The notes beneath the pieces are model-generated. The model saw only the letters and a list, made by a program, of their open reading frames with translations. It ran no database searches and had not been told where the DNA came from. Source: Narcine bancroftii (lineage: Eukaryota). Taken from it: DNA of 64,000 nucleotides. Positions 2,837-53,015 of this stretch are shown here, one piece after another. The translations under genes were made by a program, and so were the position numbers. Positions within the stretch are counted from its first letter, which is position 1, and each line of letters begins with the position of its first letter. The DNA is taken from positions 250,976,001 through 251,040,000 of the forward strand of contig NC_091473.1 of NCBI RefSeq assembly GCF_036971445.1. Direction: 5' to 3'.

Positions 2837-3324
2837 GTAAGTTCAGTTCAATGTCAACTTTGAGAGGTGAGCGTAAATTGTTATTTGAAATGTTTGTACT
2901 TTAATGAAGGGCCTTTTACCTCATGTAGAAACTCTCAATGGGTACTCAGCACTGGTTCAGCAAGAATTAGAAGGGGTATTCATATCAATTTGCCTTAGCT
3001 TTAGAAGGATGCAAAGATTCTGTAGGAGGATCCCAAAAGGTTTAATTGAATGTTTCCAGAGATGAAGGATTTTACTCATCAACTTAAACGTTCAAAGCCG
3101 TTGGTACCTTTGAGCTTCGATGGCTCAGGTAGGGTAGGTGGATGGTAACTGTTCTCCTCAAACAATCACTCATGGACCAGCTCTCCAAGAATGATGAAAT
3201 GAAACATGAAAGTCTGCAGATGCCGTAATTGTGTAGTTAAAAAAAAATGCTGGAGGTGCTCAGAAGGTCTCATAGAATCCATGTTTCGGGCCCTTCTTCA
3301 AGCTAATGTGCACAAAGTTACTGG

Positions 3325-3658
3325 TGTTACAAACCAGCAACCACAAAGAAGGCATATCACCCGGGTAAAGATGAACAATTACTTTATTAACAAAAAAATT
3401 CACCTTCAAAAGTTAATTCAAAATCCCCTCTTTTATAACAATGCCCACTGGTTACTATGCAAATCTCTATAACAGTGTAAAACTAATAAATTCCCCAGCC
3501 TAAATATAACTTACGTAATCAAAGTCTAAGCTACACTTCCAACCAGCTCACAGAAAAACTTAGACACAAAACACACAAGACTCACAAAACTTCGATCTCA
3601 ACCGAAGTAAAGATCATGAATAAAATTCAGTTTGTTAGGTAAATTGAAGCCAAAGATC

Positions 3659-10429: not shown

Positions 10430-12060
10430 ATCCATAAGTAATTGAATCTTTAACACCTTCTCTAAAAGTTCCTTACGTCGTGTCCAAAAAACCTTAACTT
10501 TCTCACAGAACAAAGTGAAATGAATAAACGTACTGACATCTTTAGAACAATGAAAGCCTAAATCTGAAGAAATCAAATTATATCTTTAATTTCTGAGGAG
10601 TTAAATATAATTGATGTAAAAAATTATAATGAATGAATCCATACGTAACATTAATAATCTTCGTCATACTATCCTTACATATAGATCTCCAATCATCTTG
10701 CTCCATTACAATACCCAGATCACTTCCACATTTTAATCTCGATTTATGGATATCTAACTTAGGCATCTTATTTTGCAATTATTTATACATTTCAGAAATA
10801 ATTTCTTTAATACCTTCCGTAAATAAAATTTCAAAATTAGACTTTCTTGGTAATCGTAAAGTACAGGTACACCCAAAATCATCCAATAATAAGGCTTTAA
10901 CTTGATAATAAGCAAAAAGAGTATTATTTGGAATTTCATATTTCTCCTTCATATAAAATAACCAGATTCATTATCATCTTGAACAGCTTTAATTCCTTTT
11001 TGATACCCTATTTTCAAAAACTGATTAATAAAGGTGAAGGGAAAAAGTTTATTTTGATATAAAGGTGTCTTAACCAAAATGTTCCCTTGTGTACCTACCT
11101 CATCATTCAACCTATTCCACAATTCAAATAAATGTCTCAAAATAGGTGGATTTTTATTAACAATTAATAACTTAATTTTCCATTTATAAATAAACTGGGT
11201 AATATCCTTCACACCAATAATATCTAACTCAATATTAGCCCACTTGGGTGGATGTTCCAAATCAAACATTCTATTAATATACCTCAATTGTGCTGCTTTT
11301 TTAATAATTTTGAAAATTCGGAAGTTGCAAACTTCCTAATTCATATTTCCAAGTAAACTTTAGTAAAGATACCCTAACCATTTTACCTCCCCATAAAAAA
11401 ACTTCCTAATTATAGAATTGAAATCTTTAAAAAAAAACCTTTGAGGAAACTTACAGATTGAAATAACTATTGAATCCTAGGAAAAACATTCATCCTGATA
11501 CAATTGACTCTACCTATTAGAGGTAAATCCTTCCATCTATTTAAGTCCTCTGATTTTATGAAATAAAAGTAAGTAATTTAACTTGTATAATTGATCTAAA
11601 TCTTTATTAATTTTAATAACTAAATATTTGATCTGATTTGACCATTTAAATTGAGCTATTTTCCCACATTGAGTATAATCAGCTGCAATTAAAGGCAGCT
11701 CTTATCCCAACCTGATACTTGACCATAATGTTTCAATCTTTTCTGCAAAAAAAATACAACGAAGTTTGTGGTTCTGTTAAATAAATTAAAACATTATCAG
11801 CAAACAAACTAATTTTAAATTCCTCAGAATTAACTTTAATACCTTTAATATTACTGTCTTGTCTTAATAATTGTGCTAAAGATTCAATAGTTAATACAAA
11901 CAATGCAGAGCATCCTTGTCTCGTAGATCTCTCTAATTAAAATGCTGATAATACTTGGCCATTTATCACTACTCTAGCAGAAGGATTTTTATTTAGAGAT
12001 TTAATCCAACTAATAAAATTTGGTCCGAATTTAAATTTTTCCAATGCTTTAAATTTAAAA
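10430..12060 (-). mobile_element. L1-clade ORF2 C-terminal fragment
   Basis: Minus frames with RSTRQGC, LFADNVL, IHYNFLHQLYLTPQKL. Confidence 0.8.
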
Positions 12061-13390: not shown

Positions 13391-14049
13391 CGCGGAAACC
13401 AACCCACAGCCACATCAGTCTTCACTCAGTCCAAGGCATCTCTTCCTCGGCCTCGAGTCTGCCCGGGAGTTCCAAGATTTGGAAACAGTTTCATGATTGC
13501 AAAGTTGACACCCGACAAAAAGCATCAAACTGAATTTTCTCAGCGAAGCGTACTCATTTATCATCATACTTCCCTGGAGAAAAAACTATTTTCCGTTGGA
13601 CAACTCTGAGACGCACAGAGTTCTGTGATTGCATTTTCAGAGATTTTTTTAAATATTTTATTTTTGATTTTTCAAACAAGTCCAAATAAATAATACATTT
13701 TTCCACAACAAAACTCATACAGAGTTTTAACTAACTGCAGTCAGTGTCCTTAACCACAGGTGAGGTGCCAGAGGATTGGAGGGTAGTTCATGTTGCTTGC
13801 TTTAAAAAAGGCTCCAAATGTCAGTGGGGCCAATGACCCCCTACAGAAACCCAGGAAGAAGGAAAACATGACAAAGTAACAAAGATGATAAACTGAAAAG
13901 AAACTCAAAATAAAACCCAAAAAAAGACTGAAAATGCTCGTCATCTGCACCATGTCCTGTTTCATTGGGCCACACTCATTTCCCTGCTGGGGATGGATTG
14001 TCACAGTGTCCCTATTTCAAAGGGGTGGGGGGGGGGGGGTAGTGGCAAT

Positions 14050-15215
14050 ATATTTCAGGTAAGGTTGCCACACTCTAACAAATGTGTTGTGTTTCTTCCA
14101 TATGATTTTTCTCGAGGGGAATGTAACTCTGCATTTCCACATTCCATCGTGTGGTATTTAATTGGGAGTCAGACTTCCACAAAACCGCTACACACTTCCT
14201 GGCTACTGCCAAGGCGACCTTCACGGCATAAATTTGGTATTTGGACTGTCTAAACTTCCCCAATATCTCCCAGAAGGTACAACTCCAGATCCTGTGGAAA
14301 ATCCACTTTGTAATTTGTTTCAGAATGTCCCCCAGGTCTTCCCAGAAGGGTCTCACTTTTCTACGTAGCCAGATGGAGTGAACAAAAGTTCCAACCTCCA
14401 CATCACACCTAAAGCACATTTCCGAAATTTCAACCTTTGATTTATGTAATTTTTGCGGTGTGAGATACAATAGAATAAGAAATTGTACTGCACCAACCTG
14501 GATTGATGACTCCAGTCACACTGTCCAGACACAGGTCTTGCCACCACTCTTCATTGATTGTGGTACCCAAGTCCAACTCCCATCTCTCCCTTGGCTTCAG
14601 GCCCTCACTTTGGAATATGTAGAACATCTTAGAGATAATAGAAAAAAAAACAGTCGAATTAGAATCTCCACTTTCCAACATCTAGGTTGGGTCATAGATG
14701 GTCCCTTAAGAAACATCTTATTTGCAGATACCAGAAGAATGTTCTGTTAGACAAATCATATTGAACTGTTCAAATGACATGAGCTTCCCCCATTTGTAAT
14801 AATCCTTAATACACCTGATCCCATTCTGACACCAGGTGTATAGGATTTTATAATCCAGAGTCAAGGGTATTAAATCATTCTGAGTCAAGGACATTTTTGG
14901 GGGACATCCTCACCTTCCATCATACACTGTTTTACTCTTTGCCATGTTGGAAGTACCTGCTTTAGAATGGGACTATCAAGTTTCTTTGCAAGTAATTTGG
15001 TATCCCATTTATATATGAATTCTTCGGCTATCTCCTCATCTCTTCACCGAGTGTAGTCCAATTTGTGCCAACGAGGGGGTGGATCCCTCCCTCAAAGAGT
15101 GAGGCAAGAAACCTCGCCTGGGCTGCCCAGTAATACTTTTTGAAATCGGCTCATTTTAAGACCCCCAAGTTATAATCCCAAGTCAACCTTTCCTAGCCAC
15201 TTTCCCATTCTACAC
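14050..15215 (-). mobile_element. L1-clade ORF2 C-terminal fragment (second family)
   Basis: YLTPQKLHK..CFRC...GTFVHSIW zinc-knuckle region; WELDLG...WQDLC. Confidence 0.8.
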
Positions 15216-21139: not shown

Positions 21140-22700
21140 AAGTTCATGCTGCAGCCTTGACATTGACACTAACTGAATTTAAGACCAGTGAATCATTATA
21201 AATACATGGTATTAATCCATCATGAAAATAAAATTGTCTATTAAAAACAGATCAAGAGACATAGTTAGAAATTTGTGGAAAATCTGAAAGCTTGGACTGA
21301 ACAAAATGCCTAATTTGTAAATATCTTTAAAAAAGCCTTTTGGAAAGATTACATTTGGCTGATAATTGTTCGAAAGAGGCAAAATTATTCTGAATAAAAA
21401 AGATCCTTGAAACTTTGAATATCTTTCGATGCTATTCCTTGCATCCAGTAAAGGCGGCTGAAAAAGATGGTAATCGATAAATGGACGAGCCAGTGAAAAA
21501 TTAATTTCCTAAACTGAGCCCAAATTCTCAATCTATTTTTCATCAATGGATTATTTGTTAATTTGTTAAAGGAAAATGGTAAAAAGGATCCTAAAATTTA
21601 TTGGTCTAAAATTCAGTCCCAATGGCTGGGATCAAAAGAGATTGGGAAAGAGAACATTTTCTGATGAAGATTGGGTCTCTACTCCCAGCTTGATTAATGA
21701 TTCCTCATTCTGTGCAATTACAATTTAAACTTAAACCGTGCATCTTGGCGCCTCACAGTTCGGCGGGCAGCAACCTCCTTTGAAGAAGACCGCAGAGCCC
21801 ACCTCACTGACAAAAGACAAAGGAGGAATAAACTTAAGTTATCATGTTTATATGCAGATATTGATCCTTTTTTGTGAGAAATGTTTGAAGCCTCTCTGAT
21901 TTATAGGTTCTGGGAATGCCCAAATTTAGAGATTTTGGAAAGAGATTTTTCAAATTCTTATCAACAATTTTCAAGTTTAACTTGGAACCCTTATGGTATC
22001 TGCTATTGCACCACTATGGAATTGAGAGATGTCCACACGGTGCGAGAGTGAACCAGTAACTGACCATATAGTTTGCATTTCTCGTGCTGCGCCCAGGGTA
22101 ACACCCACTTCCAGCGATGTGTCGTTAATCATAGGCTTCTCCTCAGGAGTGAAGGGTGACCCATGCCATTTTGAGTCAGACGACTGGGGCAGCAATTCGA
22201 CCCATCTAACTGCGCGGTCTCTCGGCCCGCTACACCCTGCCTGTTAATTTCTCGGTTTGGTTTTTCTCGTGACTCAGGTGAACCTTTATCGGCATCTCAA
22301 AAAAGGTCTTAGCTTTCACTACATTGATAGCCAGATGAGCTATTTTATTGAAATGGAAAGGAGATTTATCCCCTACTTATCCACAGCAGCAAGATAATAA
22401 TAATGTCCTATTTAAGTTTAGAGAAAATGAGATATAATATTACAGATTGAAAATTTCAATTTATGAAATTGTGGGACCCATTTCTTAGAATCTTTTTATA
22501 ATTGGAAGAGTCAATAATACCTTCCAGGAATTCTTTGTTTGTTCTTCGAGGGTCGCCAGTGATTTCACATCATTATTGATTTTTTTCCTCTTCAAAGAAG
22601 GTCACCTTGATTAAAGGAAGGGGACAGATTAGATTAGTTTAGCCCAGAGATTTTAGGTATTTTTTTTCTCTTTTATTAATCTTTATTATTTTAATATAAC
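21140..22700 (+). mobile_element. Old L1 ORF2 3' fragment with two internal insertions
   Basis: Degenerate L1 C-terminal motifs (WDQK, LQFKL, FWECPNL, LLKWK, LSLEKMRY). Confidence 0.65.
21735..21828 (+). mobile_element. 94-bp internal RTE fragment with 9-bp TSD
   Basis: Matches the reverse complement of about 24045-24137; flanked by taaacttaa at 21726-21734 and 21829-21837. Confidence 0.85.
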
Positions 22701-23868
22701 AGTCAAATAAATGGGTCTGACCTGGTTGCCTACATTATGTTTATTACTAGATTGAGTAACTGTTGTTTTATCTTGTATTCGTGTGTGTGAGTTCTTAGAC
22801 AACACATGGATGAAGGAAAAAATTCTTTACTTTAACTTGGTGTTATTACCAGCACCGAGGCAGGCCATGAGGTTGCAAACCTCCATTACAGATACAGCAT
22901 AACGTGTGTCAGCCACCTGCTGGCAGACAAGTCTAATCAAACAGTAAGGCATTGCTAGTTGCTTTGCAACCACGATCACTATCATTACATCTTCCTTTCT
23001 TAAAACAAAAATAGTTTACTTTTAACTAACATGTTTTCTTTGGATAACTCTGCAATTTTAATTTTAACATCAGGAACTTACTTTTTGCCACCATCAGTAA
23101 GTAGAATTTCAAATTTAGAGAACCTGGGTAGTTGTAACGTACACCCAAAATTATCCAAAAATAGGGCTTTAATTTGATAATAAGAAAAATGAGACTTTGA
23201 AGATATTTCATATTTCTCTTTCATTCTTTGGAATTAAATTAAAAAATCCTGCTTCATAACAATCTTCCACTAATTTAATGCCTTTCTGTTCCCACAACTT
23301 CAAAAGTTGATTAAGTGTAAAAGGTAAAAGCTTATTTTTAAGCAAAGGAGTTATACCTGAAATTTTACCTTGAGTACCTATAATTTCATTTTTTTATTCC
23401 ATAATTTCATTAAATGATTCAACAAAGGATAATTATAATTATAATTACTTAATAACTGAGAATTCCATCTATAAATAAACTGACCCATCTTCTTCTCACA
23501 AATCTAATTCAATATCAGCCCATATCAAAAGTTTATCCTGTTAATAAATTTCAACTGTGCTGATTCATAATAATCTGAAATTTAGGAAGCTGCAAACCTT
23601 CTAATGAAGTTAATTTCTGTAATGACACCCTCACCATTTTATTTTCCCACAAAAACCTCCTCACTAGAGCATCCAGATCTTTAAAAACATTTTGAGGAAT
23701 CTTGCAAGGAATAGATTGAAAAAGATATTAAATTGGAGGAAACATATTCATTTTAATACAATTAACATGTCCTATAAATGGTATAGGCTAATCTTGCTAC
23801 CGATTCAAAACATTTTTAAATTTAGACAGTGAAGATAGATAGTTCAGTTCATATAAATGATTATAATT

Positions 23869-26800
23869 CTTTTCTTTCTTCTTTGTTTCTTTGGCTTGGC
23901 TTCGCAGACGAAGATTTATGGAGGGGTAATGTCCACGTCAGCTGCAGGCTCGTTTGTGGCTGACAAGTCCGATGCGGGACAGGCAGACACGGTTGCAGCG
24001 GTTGCGGGGGAAAATTGGATAGTTGGGGTTGGGTGTTGGGTTATTCCTCCTTTGTCTTTTGTCAGTGAGGTGGGCTCTGCGGTCTTCTTCAAAGGAGGTT
24101 GCTGCCCGTCGAACTGTGAGGCGCCAAGATGCACGGTTTGAGGCGATATCAGCCCACTGGCGGTGGTCAGTGTGGCAGGCACCAAGAGATTTCTTTAGGC
24201 AGTCCTTGTACCTCTTCTTTGGTGCACCTCTGTCATGGTTGTCAGTGGAGAGCTCACCAAATAACACGATCTTGGGAAGGCGATGGTCCTCCATTCTGGA
24301 GACGTGACCTACCCAGCACAGTTGGATCTTCAGCAGCGTGGATTCGATGCTGTCGGCCTCTGCCAGCTCGAGTACTTCGATGTTAGGGATGAAGTCACTC
24401 CAATGAATGTTGAGGATGGAGCGGAGACAACGCTGGTGGAAGCGTTCTAGGAGCCGTAGGTGATGCCGGTAGAGGACCCATGATTCAGAGCTGAACAGGA
24501 GTGTGGGTATGACAACGGCTCTGTATACGCTAATCTTTGTGAGTTTTTCAGTTGGTTGTTTTTCCAGACTCTTTTGTGTAGTCTTCCGAAGGCGCTATTT
24601 GCCTTGGCGAGACTGTTTTCTATCTCGTTGTCGATCCTTGCATCCGATGAAATGGTGCAGCCGAGGTAGGTAAACTGGTTGACCGTTTTGAGTTTTGTGT
24701 GCCCGATGGAGATGTGGGGGTAGCTGGTAGTTATGGTGCGGAGCTAGCTGATGGAGGACCTCAGTTTTCTTCAGGCTGACTTCCAGGCCAAACACTTTGG
24801 CAGTTTCCGCAAAACAGGACGTCAAGCGCTGAAGAGCTGGCTCTGAATGGGCAACTAAAGCGGCATCATCTGCAAAGAGTAGTTCATGGACAAGTTGCTC
24901 TTGTGTCTTGGTGTGAGCTTGCAGGCGCCTCAGATTGAAGAGACTGCCATCCATGCGGTACCGGACGTAAACAGCATCTTCATTGTTGAGGTCTTTCATG
25001 GCTTGGTTCAGCATCATGCTGAAGAAGATTGAAAAGAGGGTTGGTGCGGGGGGGTGTGGCAAGATGGCGTAAGGATCAGACGTGCCTTCCAGTCCTCTCC
25101 TGACTCTATCTTATTGTTTTGTCTAGAAATGCCCGTTAAAATTCTTTAAAAGTTTAGATCATTTCAGTGCTGTTAATTTAACTTATGATGGTACAATTGG
25201 TGAAAAAGAGCAAAAAAAAAACGACAACAGATCATCAAAAAACATTTTCCAAAAGTTCAAGTTTTGGAGCCTACCTGCAGGAAAGACACCAGGACTCAGC
25301 GTGAAATGGATCCCAGGAGAGAGGTACAGTGTTCGGTAGAGCCCCCTAAAGAGGGCGCCAAACAGCCTTTAGAACAAAGAGTTACTCAAAGGCATTTGTC
25401 AGCTGTAGAGGTGGCGCTGCAAACTGCATCTCTTGAGATAGAAGAACCAATACAACTTGATGTACTGGGAGAACTTAATACATTATGGACTGGGGAAAAC
25501 CCCAGCCAGTGTCCTCCAGTCTCTGCTGGAGAGGCTGTGGCTGGGGTTTCCACACGCAGTCATACTACAAGGAAGGCAACCAGAATGAAGGAAGGAACAG
25601 AAGATCCTTTGGTTATGCAGAAGAAGCAGGAATCTGTTGAGCCAAAATCTCTTCCTATTGAAAAGATTTTTGTGAATCTTGAATCTAAATGATCTTATAC
25701 AATGCAGGGATTATCCAAGATTATGACTGAACTTGGTACTAGGTTTAATACTCTGGTGAAAATACATTCTCAACAGATGGCTGAGTTTGGAGCTTTTAAG
25801 CTTGAAGTGAGAGGTAAATTTAATTCGTGTGAAGAAGATATAGATGAAATATGGGATCAAGTTTTTGATGTGACCAAAATGGTCGAAGACTTACAAACTC
25901 AAAATAAAAATTTGGTGAAAAAGATTGATTATTTGGAAAACCAATTCAGACGGAACAATATAAAGATTATTGGTTTGCCGGAAGGTATGGAGGGACCAGA
26001 CCCAAGAAAAAATTTTTTTACTGAATGGATTCCGCAGGTGCTGGGTCAAGAACATTTTCCGGAAGGTATAATACTGGAACGTGCTCACAGAGCCTTGCGT
26101 AGAAGACCTATTTCAGGTCAAAGTCCAAGACCTGTTTTGGTTCGTTGCTTGAATTATTATGACAGAGAAATAATTTTACGAGTGGCTATTAGAAATGCAC
26201 AACAGAGAAAATCACCCTTGATGATTCAAAATAATCGAGTTTTCTTCTATGCGGATTTGAGTCAAGAAGTTATGTTCCAACGACGGGAATTCAATCCTGC
26301 TGAAGAGTTGTTGTGGAAGAAAGGTTACAAGGCAACCTTTAGATATCCAGCTGTTTTGAAGGTTTTTCAAGATGGTTACCAACCAAAGTTCTTTGATTCT
26401 CCAAAGGCAGCTATAGCATTTGCTCAAGAGCTGCCAATTACTCAGTTTCAACAGAGACATAGTCCGCCGCGATCTCTAAGGAGACAAGAGATGGAAGAAA
26501 GGAACCGCGCTCCAAGAAGGAATGGTTGCAATGGTGACTCGGCAGTTGGAGCTGATTAAAAGAAGAGTTGTCCTTTTTTTTTCTAATTTTTTTTTAAAAA
26601 AGGGATATTAAGTAATGATGATGTTAGTTTAAGATGAAGTGAGAGTTGGGGGAGAGAACTGGATAGGCACTATTTCCTGAAAGTCATCTGCTATGTGTGA
26701 GTTATCTCACACCCATTTTTTTGGGGGGAGTTACCGCATTGCGCAGTTTAGACGGGAGGGGGTATTTTTAACCTCCAACCCGTTTTTTTTCCTTTTTTTT

Positions 26801-27941
26801 TGTATTATTAGATTAAAGAGTGAAGGGGTTTTTTTTTGTTTAAATATTTAAAAAAAAACATAAGCAAGTATTTGATTGTTTAAAAAACTAAAAATTGATG
26901 TGGTTTTTTTTGTAAAGTTTATTCAGTAGATAAGGAATATCTGAAATTTAAATGTGAATGGGATGGATAAGTTTTTTTTTTATATATTTTTTCTTTAACT
27001 TTAAGGTGAAAGGAGTGGTAATTCTGGTGTATATTATTTTGCTATTTTAGTTATAGAACGAAGGGAATAATGGTGAAAGTTATAAATTGAATTGTACAAT
27101 TCTTAATGAGGCTTGAATTTTGTTTGTGGTTTATGCTCCATTTGTTGAAGATATAGATTTCGTTGTAGTTTTGTTTTTATTATTTGGATATCTGAATTTT
27201 AACGTAATGATTGGGGATATTTAAATGTGGTATTGGAGCTTTTATTGGATAACTATTCAAGAGTAAAAGGGAAAAATGGTGGAAGAGTACTAAAATTGAA
27301 TTGTACAATGTTTAATGAGGTTTGAATTTTGTTTTAAGATGGTGGTTTATGTGACTAATATGATGATAGATGTGAAGTTAGTTGATATTTGGTGAAGGTT
27401 TATCTCTATAGAGAAAGGTTTTTTTTCGTTTTTTTTCATGCTACCATTTTTTTTTAAGAATTGATTATTGTTTAAGAAATTTTGATAGATAATGTTACTA
27501 ACTTTACTAATTTTTTATATTGTTTGAGTTAAATATGTTTCATCTTAACTCCGTTTGTTAAATATATGCATTTAAGTTTGATTTAAATATGTTTTTTAAG
27601 TCTGATATCTTAGTATTAATTACTTTTCTTTTTGTTAGTATTTTAATCGGTTATGTTTTTGTTTTTTTTGTAAGTGGGTTTTTTTTCTCACATATATTAT
27701 TAACTTTATTAATTCTTCACTCTTTATTTTGGGGGGAAAGGGGGGTTGGACTAATTTGAGTTGGGTTATTAATGTGTAATAATTATTGGGGAGGGTATAG
27801 TTTATTTAGATTACTGCTACTGTATTGTAATTTTATTATTTTATTCTTAATGTTTTTTTAATGTAATCCTATATGTTATTCATGTTATAAAATCTTAAAT
27901 AAAGTTTTTAAAAAAAAAGAAAAGAGGGTTGGTGCGAGAAC
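23869..27941 (-). mobile_element. 5'-truncated RTE-clade LINE, interrupted by the HAL1-like element
   Basis: LAPTLFSIFF, ELLFADDAAL, MEDHRLPKIVLFGEL; AAAG-type tail; TSD ataatt at 23863-23868 and 27942-27947. Confidence 0.92.
25049..27918 (+). mobile_element. ORF1-only L1 derivative (HAL1-like), complete from 5' end to poly(A)
   Basis: 18-bp TSD gaaaagagggttggtgcg (25031-25048, 27919-27936); 5' G-run plus CAAGATGGCG; L1 ORF1p motifs RRNNIKIIGLPEG, ERAHR, FYADLS, RYPA; AATAAA and A-tail; no RT. Confidence 0.9.
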
Positions 27942-29199
27942 ATAATTACTATCTATCTTAATACCTAAAAACTTAATCCGATCTGACCACTTAAATTTGA
28001 CAATAGGCCTGCACAGAGAATAATCCATTTCAGCGAAAGGCATAATCTCACTCTTTTCCCAGTTGATTTTATAACCTGATACTTCACCGTATACTGCTCC
28101 AATCAATCATGAAAACTACTCAAAAATTTCAAAGGTTGCACTAAATTTATCAAAACTTCATCTGAAAACAAGGATATCAATTTTTAATAAAACCTGCTTA
28201 ATCTACATGAATTAAATCTGGTAAAAAATTTAGTTAATCTATTAGCCAGAACCTTGGCAACAATTTTATAATCTACATTCAATAAAGAAATAGGTCTATA
28301 AGACCCAGCTTTTAATGGCTCCCTATCCTTCTTAAGAATAACTGTAATAATTGCTTTAGGAAAAGATTCCAGAAAAGAACAAATCTCTGTCGCATGTTTC
28401 AATACACCCATCAATAAAGGAATTAATAGGTCTTGAAATTCTTTATAAAATTCAGAAGTAAAACCATCATCTCCTGGAGAATTCCCACTAGCCATAGATC
28501 GAAGTGCATCTATTAGTTCTTTAACAGTAAAGGAAGCATCTAAATCCTTGATATCTTTATCCTTCAAAAAAGAAAAAGCTAAATCAGATTTTAAAAAATG
28601 ATCAGTTTTAGCTTCATCTTCCTATACTTCAGAAGTATACCAATTTCTCATAAAATTTATGAAAATCATTATTAATTTCCTGAGGTTTATATGTAATCAT
28701 TGAATCAGATCTAATAGCATTTATTGTTCTTGAAGTTTGTTCTGTTTTCAACTGCCAAGCTAAAACTTTATGGGCTCTCTCGCCCAACTCATATCGCCAT
28801 TTAGTTCTCTGTAATAATTTCTCAAATTTATAAGTTTGTAATGAATTATACCGTAAATTCATATTAACTAAGTGTCTTTCTTAACTTCCATAGAATATCA
28901 TTGCAAATCCTTTTCCAAAATTTCTATCTCCTTCTCCAATTTACTAACCTCAGCCATATGTTGTTTCTTAATTTTAGTAGTATAATTTGTCCCCGTAAGT
29001 TGGCTTTTAAGGCATCCCATAAAAACAAATTTTCTATCTACTGAACCTATATTTACTTTCAAAAAAAGCTGTATTTGATTCCTTATAAATTCAGGATTTT
29101 TCAACAATAAAGAATTAAATCTCCAACGATAAACATTCTCAATTCTCTCCGAATCTGTACACGTAATTAACAACAAAGAACGATCAGACAAAATACAGT

Positions 29200-29775
29200 T
29201 CCCTTCTGAGTCCATAAATTTGTTTTGTCTTTTAGCCTTACTTGGTCACCGGTGTAGATTTCAGGTAGGTTTTTTTTCCCTCTGTCAAAGTAATAGTTTT
29301 GCTTTTCTTTCAGTTTTTCTTTGAACTTACTCACTTTCTCCCCCTCTGTTTTTAGGAGATTCTCCTGAATAGGTAGGTTTGATCTTAGCCTACGTCCCAT
29401 AAGGAGTTGTGCTGGTGTCAGGCAACACTTGAGCAGCATTGTGCAGTATACTCTCGTAGAAGTCTGTTCCACTGTCTTTTGCCTTGTACATCAGTCTTTT
29501 CACTGTCTGTACTGATTTTTCCACTAGACCATTGGACTGTGGAAAATGGGAACTTGACATGAAGTGTACAAAGTCCCACTCTTTGGCAAACTGTCGGAAC
29601 TCTAAATTGCAAATCTGGGATCCATGGTGCTGGGTGTGGCTTTAGTGTTTCTGCAAGAATGCTTGCTTTATATTTCTGGCATATTTACAGTCTGACACTT
29701 CATTTGTTACATCATTGATGATTCCTGGCCAGTACATCACCTCTTGTGCTCTTTTCTTACACTTTTCGATTCTGA
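29200..29775 (-). mobile_element. Gypsy integrase fragment
   Basis: RAQEVMYWPG, EFRQFAKEWDF, FPQSNGLVEK, TPAQLLMGRRLRSNLP in minus frames. Confidence 0.8.
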
Positions 29776-32690: not shown

Positions 32691-32853
32691 TGATCTCATG
32701 AACACTGCTTGACTTGCCAACTCCAGCTCAGATTATGATTTACTGATCATCTGTTTTTAAGTTAATGTTTACTATTTCAGTTTTTTTTTCCCCCATGAAG
32801 TGTCTGTTCAAGCAAAGGTTTTGGTGCTTATGTACATTTTGCCAATAAATTCA

Positions 32854-33819
32854 TTTTTTTTTTTTTTTTTTTTCTTTTTCTTTGGCTTGGCTTCGCGGAC
32901 GAAGATTTATGGAGGGGGTAAAAAAGTCCACGTCAGCTGCAGGCTCGTTTGTGGCTGACCAGTCCGATGCGGGACAGGCAGACACGATTGCAGCGGTTGC
33001 AAGGGAAAATTGGTTGGTTGGGGTTGGGTGTTGGGTTTTTCCTCCTTTGCCTTTTGTCAGTGAGGTGGGCTCTGCGGTCTTCTTCAAAGGAGGTTGCTGC
33101 CCGCCAAACTGTGAGGCGCCAAGATGCACGGTTTGAGGCGTTATCAGCCCACTGGCGGTGGTCAATGTGGCAGGCACCAAGAGATTTCTTTAGGCAGTCC
33201 TTGTACCTTTTCTTTGGTGCACCTCTGTCACGGTGGCCAGTGGAGAGCTCGCCATATAATACGATCTTGGGAAGGCGATGGTCCTCCATTCTGGAGACGT
33301 GACCCATCCAGCGCAGCTGGATCTTCAGCAGCGTGGACTCGATGCTGTCGACCTCTGCCATCTCGAGTACCTCGACGTTAGGGGTGTGAGCGCTCCAATG
33401 GATGTTGAGGATGGAGCGGAGACAACGCTGGTGGAAGCGTTCTAGGAGCCGTAGGTGGTGCCGGTAGAGGACCCATGATTCGGAGCCGAACAGGAGTGTG
33501 GGTATGACAACGGCTCTGTATACGCTTATCTTTGTGAGGTTTTTCAGTTGGTTGTTTTTCCAGACTCTTTTGTGTAGTCTTCCAAAGGCGCTATTTGCCT
33601 TGGCGAGTCTGTTGTCTATCTCATTGTCGATCCTTGCATCTGATGAAATGGTGCAGCCGAGATAGGTAAACTGGTTGACCGTTTTGAGTTTTGTGTGCCC
33701 GATGGAGATGTGGGGGGGCTGGTAGTCATGGTGGGGAGCTGGCTGATGGAGGACCTCAGTTTTCTTCAGGCTGACTTCCAGGCCAAACATTTTGGCAGTT
33801 TCCGCAAAGCAGGACGTCA
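32854..33819 (-). mobile_element. Young 5'-truncated RTE LINE in gene B intron 1
   Basis: Uninterrupted 295-aa ORF (FTYLGCTIS, LLFGSESW, RWMGHVSRM), A-rich tail, very similar to the copy at 23869-25048. Confidence 0.92.
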
Positions 33820-34505: not shown

Positions 34506-34814
34506 ATACAGTGGCCTTTCACTCGATGGTGATCAGAGCTGAAGTAGGAGAAACAATGACGGTAGAATGTCCTCACACAGAGAAATATGGACGTGCAGGC
34601 TGGTGTAAAACATATCTCCCAGAAATGTGCAAAGTGGTGGTGAGCACCAATGGAGAAGACCACAATGGAAGAACATCAATCAGAAGGAAAAAAGGGTCTG
34701 TTTTTGTAACCATATTTGAAGTTGAGACAATCGACTCGGGGATATATTGGTGTGGACTCAGACAGGCAGATTTTATCCACATTTCAGATACCATCATGCT
34801 GGAAGTTTTCACAG
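34506..34814 (+). CDS. Receptor gene B, Ig-V domain 1, CD300/pIgR/TREM type
   Basis: caacag acceptor, G|gtagga donor, phase 1-1; VECP...WCKTYLPEMC (extra Cx7C pair)...GRTSI...DSGIYWCG. Confidence 0.92.
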
Positions 34815-35142
34815 GTAGGAAGTTTTCTGAAGACTATAGGACATAATATGCTTGAGGCAGTGACACAAGGCCTGGTGTCAAATTAGGAGCTCATTACACG
34901 AGCTTCGCCTCTGCAGATAATATTGCATCACCTACTGTACTCAAGAACAGGTTGACTTGCCTAGACGGCAGGTTTATCAGCATCTGGGTGTCAGTCGGAT
35001 CGAGATCCTATGTCAGGACTCTGAGGCTGCGTTATCCTATGGGGCCCGCGTTATCCTGCAGTTGGCTTCTCCATCGTCAGACATTTTGCCACTTCAGTTT
35101 CTTGTTGTTTCTAACCTCGTGACTTTTCTCATCCACAAGCAG

Positions 35143-48123: not shown

Positions 48124-49820
48124 GAAGGGACTGATACTGTGCTGAGGGGAGAGAGCGGGGCAGTGGGATCAGTGTGGGGACTGACATGAGGCTGTGGGGA
48201 GAGTGGGGCAGTGGGATCAGTGAGGGGACTGAGACTGAGCTGTGGGGAGAGAGCGGGGCAGTGTGATCAGTGTGGGGACTGACATGAGGCTGTGGGGAGA
48301 GTGGGGCAGTGGGATCAGTGAGGGGACTGAGACTGGGCTGTGGGGAGAGAGTGGGGCAGTGTGATCAGTGTGGGGACTGACATGAGGCTGTGGGGAGAGT
48401 GGGGCAGTGGGATCAGTGAGGGGACTGAGACTGGGCTGTGGGGAGAGAGTGGGGCAGTGGAATCAGTGAGGGGACTGAGACTGGGCTGTGGGGAGAGAGC
48501 GGGGCAGTGGGATCAGTGAGGGAACTGAGACTGGGCTCTGGGGAGAGAGTGGGGCAGTGGGATCAGTGAAGGGACTGAGACTGGGCTGTGGGGAGAGAGC
48601 GGGGCAGTGGGATCAGTGAAGGGACTGAGACTGGGCTGTGGGGAGAGAGCGGGGCAGTGGGATCAGTGAGGGAACTGAGACTGGGCTCTGGGGAGAGAGT
48701 GGGGCAGTGGGATCAGTGAAGGGACTGAGACTGGGCTCTGGGGAGAGAGCGGGGCAGTGGGATCAGTGTGGGGACTGAGACTGGGCTGTGGGGAGAGAGC
48801 GGGGCAGTGGGATCAGTGTGGGGACTGAGACTGGGCTGTGGGGAGAGAGCGGGGCAGTGGGATCAGTGTGGGGACTGAGACTGGGCTGTGGGGAGAGAGC
48901 GGGGCAGTGGGATCAGTGAGGGAACTGAGACTGGGCTCTGGGGAGAGAGTGGGGCAGTGGGATCAGTGAAGGGACTGAGACTGGGCTCTGGGGAGAGAGC
49001 GGGGCAGTGGGATCAGTGTGGGGACTGAGACTGGGCTGTGGGGAGAGAGCGGGGCAGTGGGATCAGTGTGGGGACTGAGACAGGGCTGTGGGGAGAGAGC
49101 GGGGCAGTGGGATCAGTGTGGGGACTGAGACTGGGCTGTGGGGAGAGAGCGGGGCAGTGGGATCAGTGTGGGGACTGAGACTGGGCTGTGGGGAGAGAGG
49201 GGGGCAGTGTGATCAGTGTGGGGACTGACATGAGGCTGTGGGGAGAGTGGGGCAGTGGGATCAGTGAGGGGACTGAGACTGGGCTGTGGGGAGAGAGGGG
49301 GGCAGTGTGATCAGTGTGGGGACTGACATGAGGCTGTGGGGAGAGTGGGGCAGTGGGATCAGTGAGGGGACTGAGACTGGGCTGTGGGGAGAGAGGGGGG
49401 CAGTGGAATCAGTGAGGGGACTGAGACTGGGCTGTGGGGAGAGAGTGGGGAAGTGGGATCAGTGAGGGAACTGAGACTGGGCTCTGGGGAGAGAGTGGGG
49501 CAGTGGGATCAGTGAAGGGACTGAGACTGGGCTGTGGGGAGAGAGCGGGGCAGTGGGATCAGTGTGGGGACTGAGACTGGGCTGTGGGGAGAGAGCGGGG
49601 CAGTGGGATCAGTGTGGGGACTGAGACTGGGCTGTGGGGAGAGAGTGGGGCAGTGTGATCAGTGTGGGGACTGAGACTGGGCTGTGGGGAGAGAGCGGGG
49701 CAGTGGGATCAGTGTGGGGACTGAGACTGGGCTGTGGGGAGAGAGCGGGGCAGTGGGATCAGTGTGGGGACTGAGACTGGGCTGTGGGGAGAGAGCGGGG
49801 CAGTGGGATCAGTGTGGGGA
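48124..49820 (+). repeat. G-rich minisatellite, 50-bp unit, about 34 copies
   Basis: Unit gggagagagcggggcagtgggatcagtgtggggactgagactgggctgtg with 48-49-bp variants. Confidence 0.97.
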
Positions 49821-50984
49821 CCTTATCTCGGTGTTAGATAAGGTATACTTGTATTCTTTTTCAACTTACTATAGTGATAGATCTTTACCTCCCATGGACG
49901 CCGACACGTGCAGAGTACTCCACCATTTCTGTGTTTTCAAACAGAAATATGACAGCAGACCTGATGCAAAACCCCAGTTTAGTGTTTTTGTTGTTTTCAA
50001 AATATTTTCCTTTCATCCCAAACCCTTTCTCTCCTGATGGTGCCAATTCTTACCAAAATTTCAACCCTGCAGCAACCAATTAAAGGACACGCTGAATCGT
50101 TGACCCCCTCCACCCCCACCCACTGTAGACAATGAGTTGAAAGGCTTCCTTCTGCACTTCATGTTCCGAAGATTTCATGTTTAAACTGTCACTGCCCAAG
50201 GGCAAGAGAATGGCCCAGAAAAACTAACTTTCTGAGTCTTCTGCTGCAGACCCGACAGCTCCGTTCGGGTGCTAAACAGTGTTTGTAAGTAAAAAGTTTG
50301 CAACCATGGGCCTGTGCCCAAGGTGGCGGCACCTGCGCTCGGCCCCAAAGATTCGGTGCACCAGAAATGAGGATGGCACGCCCCCACCCCCGACATTGAG
50401 AAGGTGAAGTAAAGGAGTTGGCGAAGTAGAGGAGTTGGCCCTACAGGACTGTAACCACGATGGCGGGCCAGCCAGGGGCTCAGCGGCTGAGGGACACTCA
50501 CAGGCTGTGGGCAACTTGCACGCGGGGCGTAGGCTGCTGGAGACTGGCTGATGGCAATCAGGTATTGGAGTTTGGATTCGAGAGGGTGCCAAGAGCAAGA
50601 AAAATCTTCTGAACGGCCGCAGGTGCTGAATGGTTCTTGAACGTATCGGAGGTTTGGATCTGGAGCTTGCGTTGCTGATGGTTTGAGGGATTTTCCTGGA
50701 ATCTGCTCAGATAATAGTGGGATCAAGTTCAAGATTCGCAAAATAATGTTGCCCTTCTATAAAACTCTGGTTCAATTGCATTTTGCCTAATGTGTTCAGT
50801 TCTGGTTGCCTCATTACCGGAAGGACGCTTTGGAGAGGGTACAGAGATTTACCAGGATTGGAGGACGTGTTTTACAAGGCAAAGTTAGCACTAGTAGGGG
50901 CTTTCCTCTTTGGAGCAAAGAAGGATGAGAGGTGACTTAATAGTGGTGCAAAAGATATGTGTTAATAGTGATATTTAGGTAAAG

Positions 50985-52781: not shown

Positions 52782-53015
52782 AAGGGATACTGGAATGTGA
52801 GGAGTCAAGCAAGTGCTCATTAGAGATGAAGTATTATGGGTTAAATTAGGGTGAAGGGATGCTGGAATGGGAGGAGTCAAGTGCTCATTAGAGATGAAGT
52901 ATTATGGGTGAAATCAGGGTGAAGGGATGCTGGAATGGGAGGAGTCAAGCAAGTGCTCATTAGAAATGAAGTATTATGGGTTAAATCAGGGTGAAGGGAT
53001 GCTGGAATGGGAGGA
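52782..53015. repeat. Tandem repeat, about 3.3 copies of 68-72 bp
   Basis: aagggat.ctggaatg.gaggagtcaag...gtattatggg repeats at 52782, 52854, 52922 and 52994. Confidence 0.9.

Follow-up and report, generated by a model that had tools for sequence, protein, structure and literature searches.

Half-L1 elements (HAL1), described from mammals, are L1-derived, ORF1-only retrotransposons that arose repeatedly (PMC5753468, PMC4161310). APOBEC editing of LINE and LTR elements, as described for lizard L1 and mouse IAP, leaves plus-strand G-to-A changes (PMC3880073, PMC4982230), and clusters of plus-strand C-to-T serve as the negative control in PMC3880073; APOBEC1 is described as present in lungfish and tetrapods (PMC5889660). 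Coronavirus genomes are reported to carry a plus-strand C>U excess with A/U flanks and, in the long term, a U-rich, C-poor composition (PMC7831814), while a preprint on vertebrate histone genes ascribes a C>T excess on the non-transcribed strand to AID/APOBEC (10.64898/2026.06.11.731563). Moreover, Ruggiero and Boissinot (2020; PMC7140322) describe LINE clades of a single host that differ in strand composition, and favour selection as the cause; the counts they present are of singletons only, and the hosts they present include no cartilaginous fish.

Here we describe, in a window of 64,000 nucleotides from the ray Narcine bancroftii (NC_091473.1, forward-strand positions 250,976,001 to 251,040,000), a HAL1-like element whose dead endonuclease has lost most of its sense-strand cytosines to thymine. 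Its family (A), a second family (D) and the recombinant family B2 resemble HAL1, as described, in being L1-derived, ORF1-only and repeatedly arisen; they differ in belonging to a cartilaginous fish, in their recognisable ORF2 relics and, for D, in a captured host exon. The cytosine loss shares with APOBEC editing, as reported, its strand specificity and its occurrence outside CpG, but the reported editing is clustered and on the opposite strand, whereas change in families A and D is gradual. With the reported coronavirus pattern it shares a plus-strand C-to-U excess, a U-rich, C-poor end state and, in family A but not in family D, A/U flanks, the difference being a germline retrotransposon and accumulation through source elements. 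The polarity is also that described for transcription-associated C>T on the non-template strand (PMC10030826, 10.64898/2026.06.11.731563); unlike that process, it amounts to about 2 substitutions per C site versus 0.09-0.15 per G site and is found in one L1 clade. Finally, the bias lies in shared variants, a class excluded from the counts presented in PMC7140322. The open literature searched, to which subscription journals, Repbase Reports and supplements do not belong, held no matching report. The element itself is of a known kind, and T-rich HAL1 tails, or these families in repeat libraries, may have been mentioned before; what is new is the C>T pressure, which acts on the plus strand, accumulates over time, is restricted to one clade, exceeds background by an order of magnitude and is seen on a captured host exon. 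It bears on the question of how the LINE clades of a single genome come to maintain such different strand compositions, and its signature, plus-strand C>T, is the one that editing screens use as a negative control.

Anatomy and relatives of the element

The element is inserted in what we take to be an RTE-type LINE and comprises the following features:

25032..25048, + strand: left target-site duplication, 17 bp; the identical 17-mer recurs at 27920
25049..27919, + strand: whole element, ORF1-only L1 derivative (family A, HAL1-like), 2.87 kb
25185..26559, + strand: L1-type ORF1; homologues are named L1 ORF1 or L1 RRM protein
26640..26800, + strand: inter-ORF spacer, conserved, with predicted stem-loops; cytosines kept
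26840..27460, + strand: dead APE-endonuclease relic; 48 of 60 parental C now T
27061..27126, + strand: duplicated segment, native copy
27267..27335, + strand: duplicated segment, inserted copy (58-nt insertion relative to the parent)
27453..27590, + strand: junction of a multi-kb internal deletion (RT lost) and last ORF2 codons
27591..27918, + strand: 3' UTR common to families A, B and D; 78% identity to the B 3' end
27898..27903 and 27910..27918, + strand: AATAAA and poly(A), read from the sequence
27920..27936, + strand: right target-site duplication, same 17-mer as at 25032

Two copies of the RTE-type LINE were seen, at 23850-25048 and 32800-33790 (minus strand), the first being the insertion target. 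In the window copy of family A, two lesions break ORF1, a frameshift in its 5' part (near 25212-25243) and a stop (25690-25692); a frame of at least 400 aa is still open in 10 of 39 copies, the family-majority ORF1 codons include no stop, and 191 of 274 codons give the same residue as family B. ORF1 has no Pfam match, and its closest protein matches are Narcine bancroftii entries. A predicted GPCR protein under the same organism name (P0017) is similar to it over about 95 residues, probably through an annotation fusion. The endonuclease relic holds stops and frameshifts, and reverse transcriptase is absent from the element. A genome DNA search with the element gave 1,597 candidates, the 40 that were scored reaching 97-100%, and 78 copies were aligned at 93-97%; these were chosen as the best search matches, so that young copies are favoured. 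Target-site duplications of 10-18 bp flank 26 of the 28 full-length copies tested. Family A thus shows HAL1-like features: ORF1 is the sole coding frame, ORF2 is lost, and the whole has been amplified as a unit by target-primed reverse transcription.

Family B is a full-length L1 of the same genome, provisionally assigned to L1 rather than Tx1 on the names of its matches and on its APE endonuclease and RT domains in Pfam (endonuclease, Exo_endo_phos, E=5e-15). As a genome query the relic returned family A alone, and B was reached through relatives of ORF1; genome searches found no autonomous element closer to family A than B. With overall identity of only about 68-78%, B is a sister of family A's true parent and not the parent itself; the relic and the B endonuclease share 68-69% of nucleotides and, over 75 residues, 60% of amino acids. 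Family A is collinear with B in its 5' end, ORF1, spacer, endonuclease and 3' end, with about 3 kb missing: from element position 2405 onward its match lies some 3 kb farther along B, at the end of ORF2. Because the 3' end is common to both, family A would have been mobilised in trans by a B-like ORF2 protein. At third-position purines the relic resembles B more closely than ORF1 does (29/39 G retained and 6/44 A>G in the relic), so comparison of the two halves suggests that family A may be chimeric, its 5' half older and its 3' half B-like. Family C, a distant L1, served as outgroup, with one copy each aligned by codon.

Family D is a second ORF1-only L1 derivative, and B2 a young recombinant with a newly dead endonuclease. 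The B2 loci (L044, L048-L051, L069-L078) join a B 5' end and a truncated B endonuclease to D-derived sequence (ORF1 tail, spacer, 3' end), a structure that shows repeated template switching among these families. The family A tree (73 copies, five short ones excluded) is mostly star-like, with only subfamily A2 well supported, and haplotype groups were therefore used. A pattern designed for older, less converted A copies had one match, L222, 93% identical.

Several anatomical details of the first-pass annotation needed revision. The relic, placed there at 26940, begins near 26840-26860, and NVNG, taken for the APE N-terminal motif, is an off-frame reading of the parental KLKREWVG codons, which give NVNG off-frame in the parent too; the true N-terminal motif was lost at a deletion junction. 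An internal duplication is indeed present, not of about 42 bp as proposed, but as a 58-nt insertion whose homology extends over about 65-70 nt.

Sense-strand cytosine loss in the relic and in a captured HSP90 exon

Positions 26940-27475 contain A 29%, C 5.2%, G 21.5% and T 44.2%, compared with 15.7-19.9% C in ORF1, so the C-poor, T-rich character first noticed there, unlike ORF1, is real. Among 635 sliding 536-nt windows, an absolute GC skew of at least 0.6 occurs only at starts 26801-27001 and at a 50-bp array near 48.1-49.8 kb. Column majorities of six A and six B copies, over 533 aligned columns, gave C>T 48/60, G>A 14/112, T>C 14/188 and A>G 16/173. Outside CpG, against this closest L1 found, C>T stood at 43/54 and G>A at 12/105 (P=9e-18), the asymmetry that had been proposed; within the originally annotated coordinates the counts were 42/53 and 11/100. 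At sites where B agrees with outgroup family C they were 21/29 and 4/63 (P=1e-10), and the apparent C-to-T direction was thereby confirmed by the outgroup. CpG decay as the cause of the C loss is ruled out by the non-CpG counts, and symmetric AT drift by likelihood (2dlnL 118, 69 and 20 against k=1).

Thirty-three of the 48 C>T changes are non-synonymous and eight create stops; residue changes include S>F (9), Q>stop (6), T>I (5), H>Y (5) and A>V (4). The S>F, H>Y, R>stop and two A>V changes proposed against typical L1 motifs proved genuine, the parent having SFNSKAKGVAILVH and DIWRR. The R>stop change has no diagnostic value, however, because it lies at a CpG site and also occurs in two of the six aligned parent copies. 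Apart from two transversions among 50 changes of C (P=9e-10), every change was to T; A>T was seen 15 times versus 7 for T>A. Flanks show a mild A/T preference (WCW 28/29 versus 15/23). WRC sites gave 14/18 versus 29/34 and, in a second count, 11/101 versus 20/206, so that an AID-type WRC preference was found in neither. Predicted pairing was 0.67 for converted and 0.58 for retained C (P=0.6). Adjacent TC/CT swaps recur between subfamilies and families (25560-25561, 26295-26296, 27435-27436 and several relic columns), where C appears displaced by one place in T-rich runs.

In its 3' part, family D includes 210 nt captured from a host HSP90 exon. The piece, from the charged linker and now 3' UTR, was located in L083 at about 3255-3465 (G000:C1:197.90 Mb) and in at least 199 search candidates; the intact host gene lies at G000:C5, about 41.59 Mb, with the source segment at L183 1559-1772. 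The majority sequence of 30 D copies, compared with the intact gene, gives C>T 20/23, G>A 4/51, T>C 1/35 and A>G 9/104; other routes to T are rare (A>T 0/104, G>T 1/51), and none of the 20 C changes is a transversion. Dead coding DNA has thus lost 80-87% of its sense-strand C to T, in the relic and in the HSP90 piece. The D ORF2 relic is affected likewise (C>T 10/16 versus G>A 5/36), as are non-synonymous ORF1 sites of D (21/102 versus 7/120). The A/T-flank preference is absent from the HSP90 piece (11/13 versus 9/10) and from the D relics.

In L193, an older D copy with 88% identity to D, only 13 of the 23 HSP90 sites show C>T, compared with 20 in D, which indicates that conversion is cumulative. 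All but one of its converted sites are also converted in D, and one HSP90 site is still polymorphic within D. After the split from L193, the D branch acquired C>T at 18/147 and G>A at 12/306 (P=0.002), and the L193 branch 5/134 and 5/301. In the young dead endonuclease of B2, C>T stands at 3/65 and G>A at 0/121, the changes being shared, while four single-step HSP90 retrocopies (five segments) have 4/181 and 4/216. Two-state distances amount to 2.2 C>T per site in both relic and HSP90 piece, versus 0.15 and 0.09 for G>A, and full-spectrum fits returned C>T excess factors of 10.6 (7.4-14.9), 23.7 (12-47) and 6.9 (3.3-12.8). The change of a dead coding sequence into a U-rich 3' UTR, as originally described, is therefore directional but not special to that UTR.

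Cytosine depletion across the L1 lineage and among copies

Whether an autonomous relative is equally C-poor has a divided answer: fourfold sites of B contain 3.8-5.4% C (A.32-.34, G.11-.14, T.48-.51) and third positions of its ORF2 4%, but its endonuclease about 11%. As full-length B is C-poor at fourfold sites, the pressure is lineage-wide, and the loss of coding constraint merely exposes it; the relic's C content has come down to that of synonymous sites. In ORF1, B and D retain 0.07-0.09 of synonymous pyrimidines, which are thus randomised, and 0.60-0.63 of purines, which are not. The singleton spectrum with only C>T raised 5- to 10-fold predicts A.33, C.03-.055, G.15 and T.46-.49, a one-parameter model that comes close to the synonymous composition of B. 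Third positions with C 4-9% and T 36-47% occur in B, A, D and two other L1 fragments of the window, and are absent from family C (A-rich), a third L1 fragment and the RTE-type element. The RTE-type LINE of this genome shows the opposite bias: its silent or fourfold sites hold 46-50% C.

On the A branch, three-way counts of C>T versus G>A revealed no C>T excess in ORF1 (7/81 versus 27/159), spacer (2/28 versus 9/48) or 5' end (1/32 versus 5/31). Synonymous retention between A and B ORF1 is alike for pyrimidines (0.26) and purines (0.23), values that are near saturation and come from small counts. The spacer has folding z of -1.9 to -3.7 (seven copies, three families), 16 of its 21 invariant C are predicted to be paired, and it has no Rfam match. 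Its conservation in three families and a folding better than that of shuffled sequences make constraint the likely explanation for its kept C, and purifying selection likely protects the cytosines of ORF1 and spacer alike. In families A, B and D the spacer (26640-26800) has predicted stem-loops followed by a U run, possibly a cis element kept after ORF2 loss. A 3' UTR motif at 27712-27745, also conserved in all three, has retained its C; pairing of this motif with a G run is predicted.

The distribution of variants among copies separates shared from private change. Outside CpG, family A variants present in at least four copies are biased (C>T 30/307 versus G>A 12/544, P=5e-6), in keeping with the proposal that changes are common to family copies, and 26 of the 30 have a 5' W; singletons are symmetric (87/307 versus 157/544). 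Biased shared variants together with symmetric singletons indicate that change accrues in source-element lineages. Between subfamilies A1 and A2 there are 24 C/T and 7 A/G differences, and within A1, polarised by A2, we counted C>T 17, T>C 6, G>A 4 and A>G 3. Polarising A variants by B and D proved unreliable, because B and D drift to T themselves. None of the 78 family A copies is hypermutated, the maximum being three private C>T, with variance equal to the mean. Singletons pooled over families A, B and D number 178, compared with 185.7 expected under symmetry, and events in one to three A1 copies give a ratio of 1.20 (0.996-1.45), so the C>T dose per new copy is small and may be zero. The shared-variant excess is not significant alone in D (5/287 versus 3/564) or B (9/223 versus 6/293). 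The earlier view of a directional sense-strand C>T change, cumulative and fixed across family copies, stands, as does its polarity opposite to APOBEC3-type minus-strand cDNA editing (C>T 48/60 versus G>A 14/112). APOBEC3-type editing was rejected as a cause: a plus-strand G-to-A excess is not seen, and single copies hold no clustered hypermutation.

Candidate sources of the bias

A strand-specific mutational process in source lineages is very probably responsible; as fitted, these lineages undergo sense-strand C-to-T about ten times above the genome background, with an excess of 7- to 24-fold. We tentatively place the C-to-U change in RNA, and regard both this substrate and the resulting explanation of the C loss, RNA change fixed by reverse transcription, as falling a little short of an even chance. 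Cytidines in the element RNA would become uridines at a low rate, the uridines would be copied into DNA in each round of retrotransposition, and at most about one change per new copy would add up over hundreds to thousands of cycles. Consistent with an RNA substrate, C goes almost only to T (2/50 and 0/20 transversions), AID-type WRC preference is lacking, and family A has mild A/T flanks like those reported for coronavirus C-to-U (PMC7831814). Yet that flank preference is absent from the HSP90 piece and the D relics, predicted pairing does not separate converted from retained relic C, and a process acting in every cycle should leave an excess of singletons, where fewer than the symmetric expectation were counted (178 versus 185.7). 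An RNA process must also account for ORF1, spacer and 5' end, which lack C>T excess on the A branch and call for the constraint argument, for the similar retention of synonymous pyrimidines and purines between A and B ORF1, and for a shared-variant excess that falls short of significance in D or B alone. Because the RTE-type LINE of this genome is C-rich, general RNA decay would not suffice. The only deaminase found is APOBEC2-like: two AID/APOBEC family searches of the genome yielded a single exon of this type (L171 1480-2034, minus strand, G000:C11:227.49 Mb) and missed AID too, a sign of low sensitivity.

Symmetric singletons beside biased shared variants are fitted best, with no dose per cycle needed, if the non-template DNA strand deaminates, spontaneously or by AID/APOBEC, in a few highly transcribed germline source loci while silent copies change symmetrically. 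Enzymatic deamination of DNA usually adds transversions through uracil excision, but C>G and C>A are almost lacking here, as is WRC preference; the 7- to 24-fold excess is large, and the RTE-type and A-rich L1 families, whose sources must be transcribed too, lack the T-rich, C-poor pattern (their shared-variant counts are low-powered). The polarity matches that described for non-template-strand deamination (PMC10030826), and vertebrate histone genes offer a reported precedent (10.64898/2026.06.11.731563); on the whole we consider deamination at source loci unlikely, if well worth keeping in view. Clade specificity of the third-position composition is best explained by a biased reverse transcriptase of this L1 clade that places T opposite G (second strand) or A opposite C (first strand), a bias that A and D would inherit because they borrow the enzyme; pure transitions would follow and no host deaminase would be necessary. 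The missing singleton excess weighs here too, the single-step HSP90 retrocopies are balanced (4/181 versus 4/216, a single cycle with little power, and mobilised perhaps by another enzyme), and repair should often revert G:T mismatches that remain in DNA, so that we rate an enzyme error as improbable. Selection of source elements for U-rich or C-poor RNA, whether for stability, export, ORF1p binding or escape from silencing, could draw on the shared variants having passed a selective filter, on the relic's A>T count (15 versus 7 T>A) and on the case made for selection on LINE base composition in PMC7140322. It is disfavoured, and very unlikely in our judgement, because other routes to T are not raised in the HSP90 piece (A>T 0/104, G>T 1/51) and C goes only to T, while selection against C would fix about 43% transversions (2/50 observed); C>T, moreover, reaches non-synonymous ORF1 sites of D. 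The first-pass suggestion of selection for U-richness is accordingly dropped. A single burst of hypermutation in one ancestor would suit a near-complete conversion confined to dead coding pieces, but hardly deserves credence: the graded series of 3/65 in B2, 13/23 in L193 and 20/23 in D excludes it (the L193 intermediate refutes it unless recombinant), single-site steps between subfamilies continue, and 0 of 78 copies are hypermutated.

Both RNA deamination and enzyme error would fit a broader proposition, which we hold to be evenly balanced, that the L1 clade of this ray has a sense-strand C-to-U mutator of its own, either an unrecognised RNA deaminase acting on the RNP or its own RT. If so, the mutator would be strong enough to convert any unconstrained cargo, host exons included, in an almost bisulfite-like manner; a mutation bias of the replication cycle would set LINE strand composition, invisibly to singleton-based studies, and captured exons would form a clock of retrotransposition cycles. 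As an internal experiment, these elements combine a known ancestor, the HSP90 exon of the host, with a time series and a mutation model of a single parameter, and the source of the bias is directly testable in them.

Further observations concern the rest of the window. L1-like fragments lie on the minus strand at 27990-29300, 22250-23900, 10500-11500 and 13800-14800, three of them about 60-64% identical to B; third positions are C-poor and T-rich in those at 28-29 kb and 11 kb, and not in the 14 kb fragment. The skewed array at 48127-49821 consists of a 50-bp G-rich unit in tandem (34 copies, 92% matches), and a 72-bp repeat of 3.3 copies occupies 52782-53015. Finally, a short frame at 34526-34846 may represent an immunoglobulin V-type exon, as it seems to resemble CD300/pIgR-like proteins.
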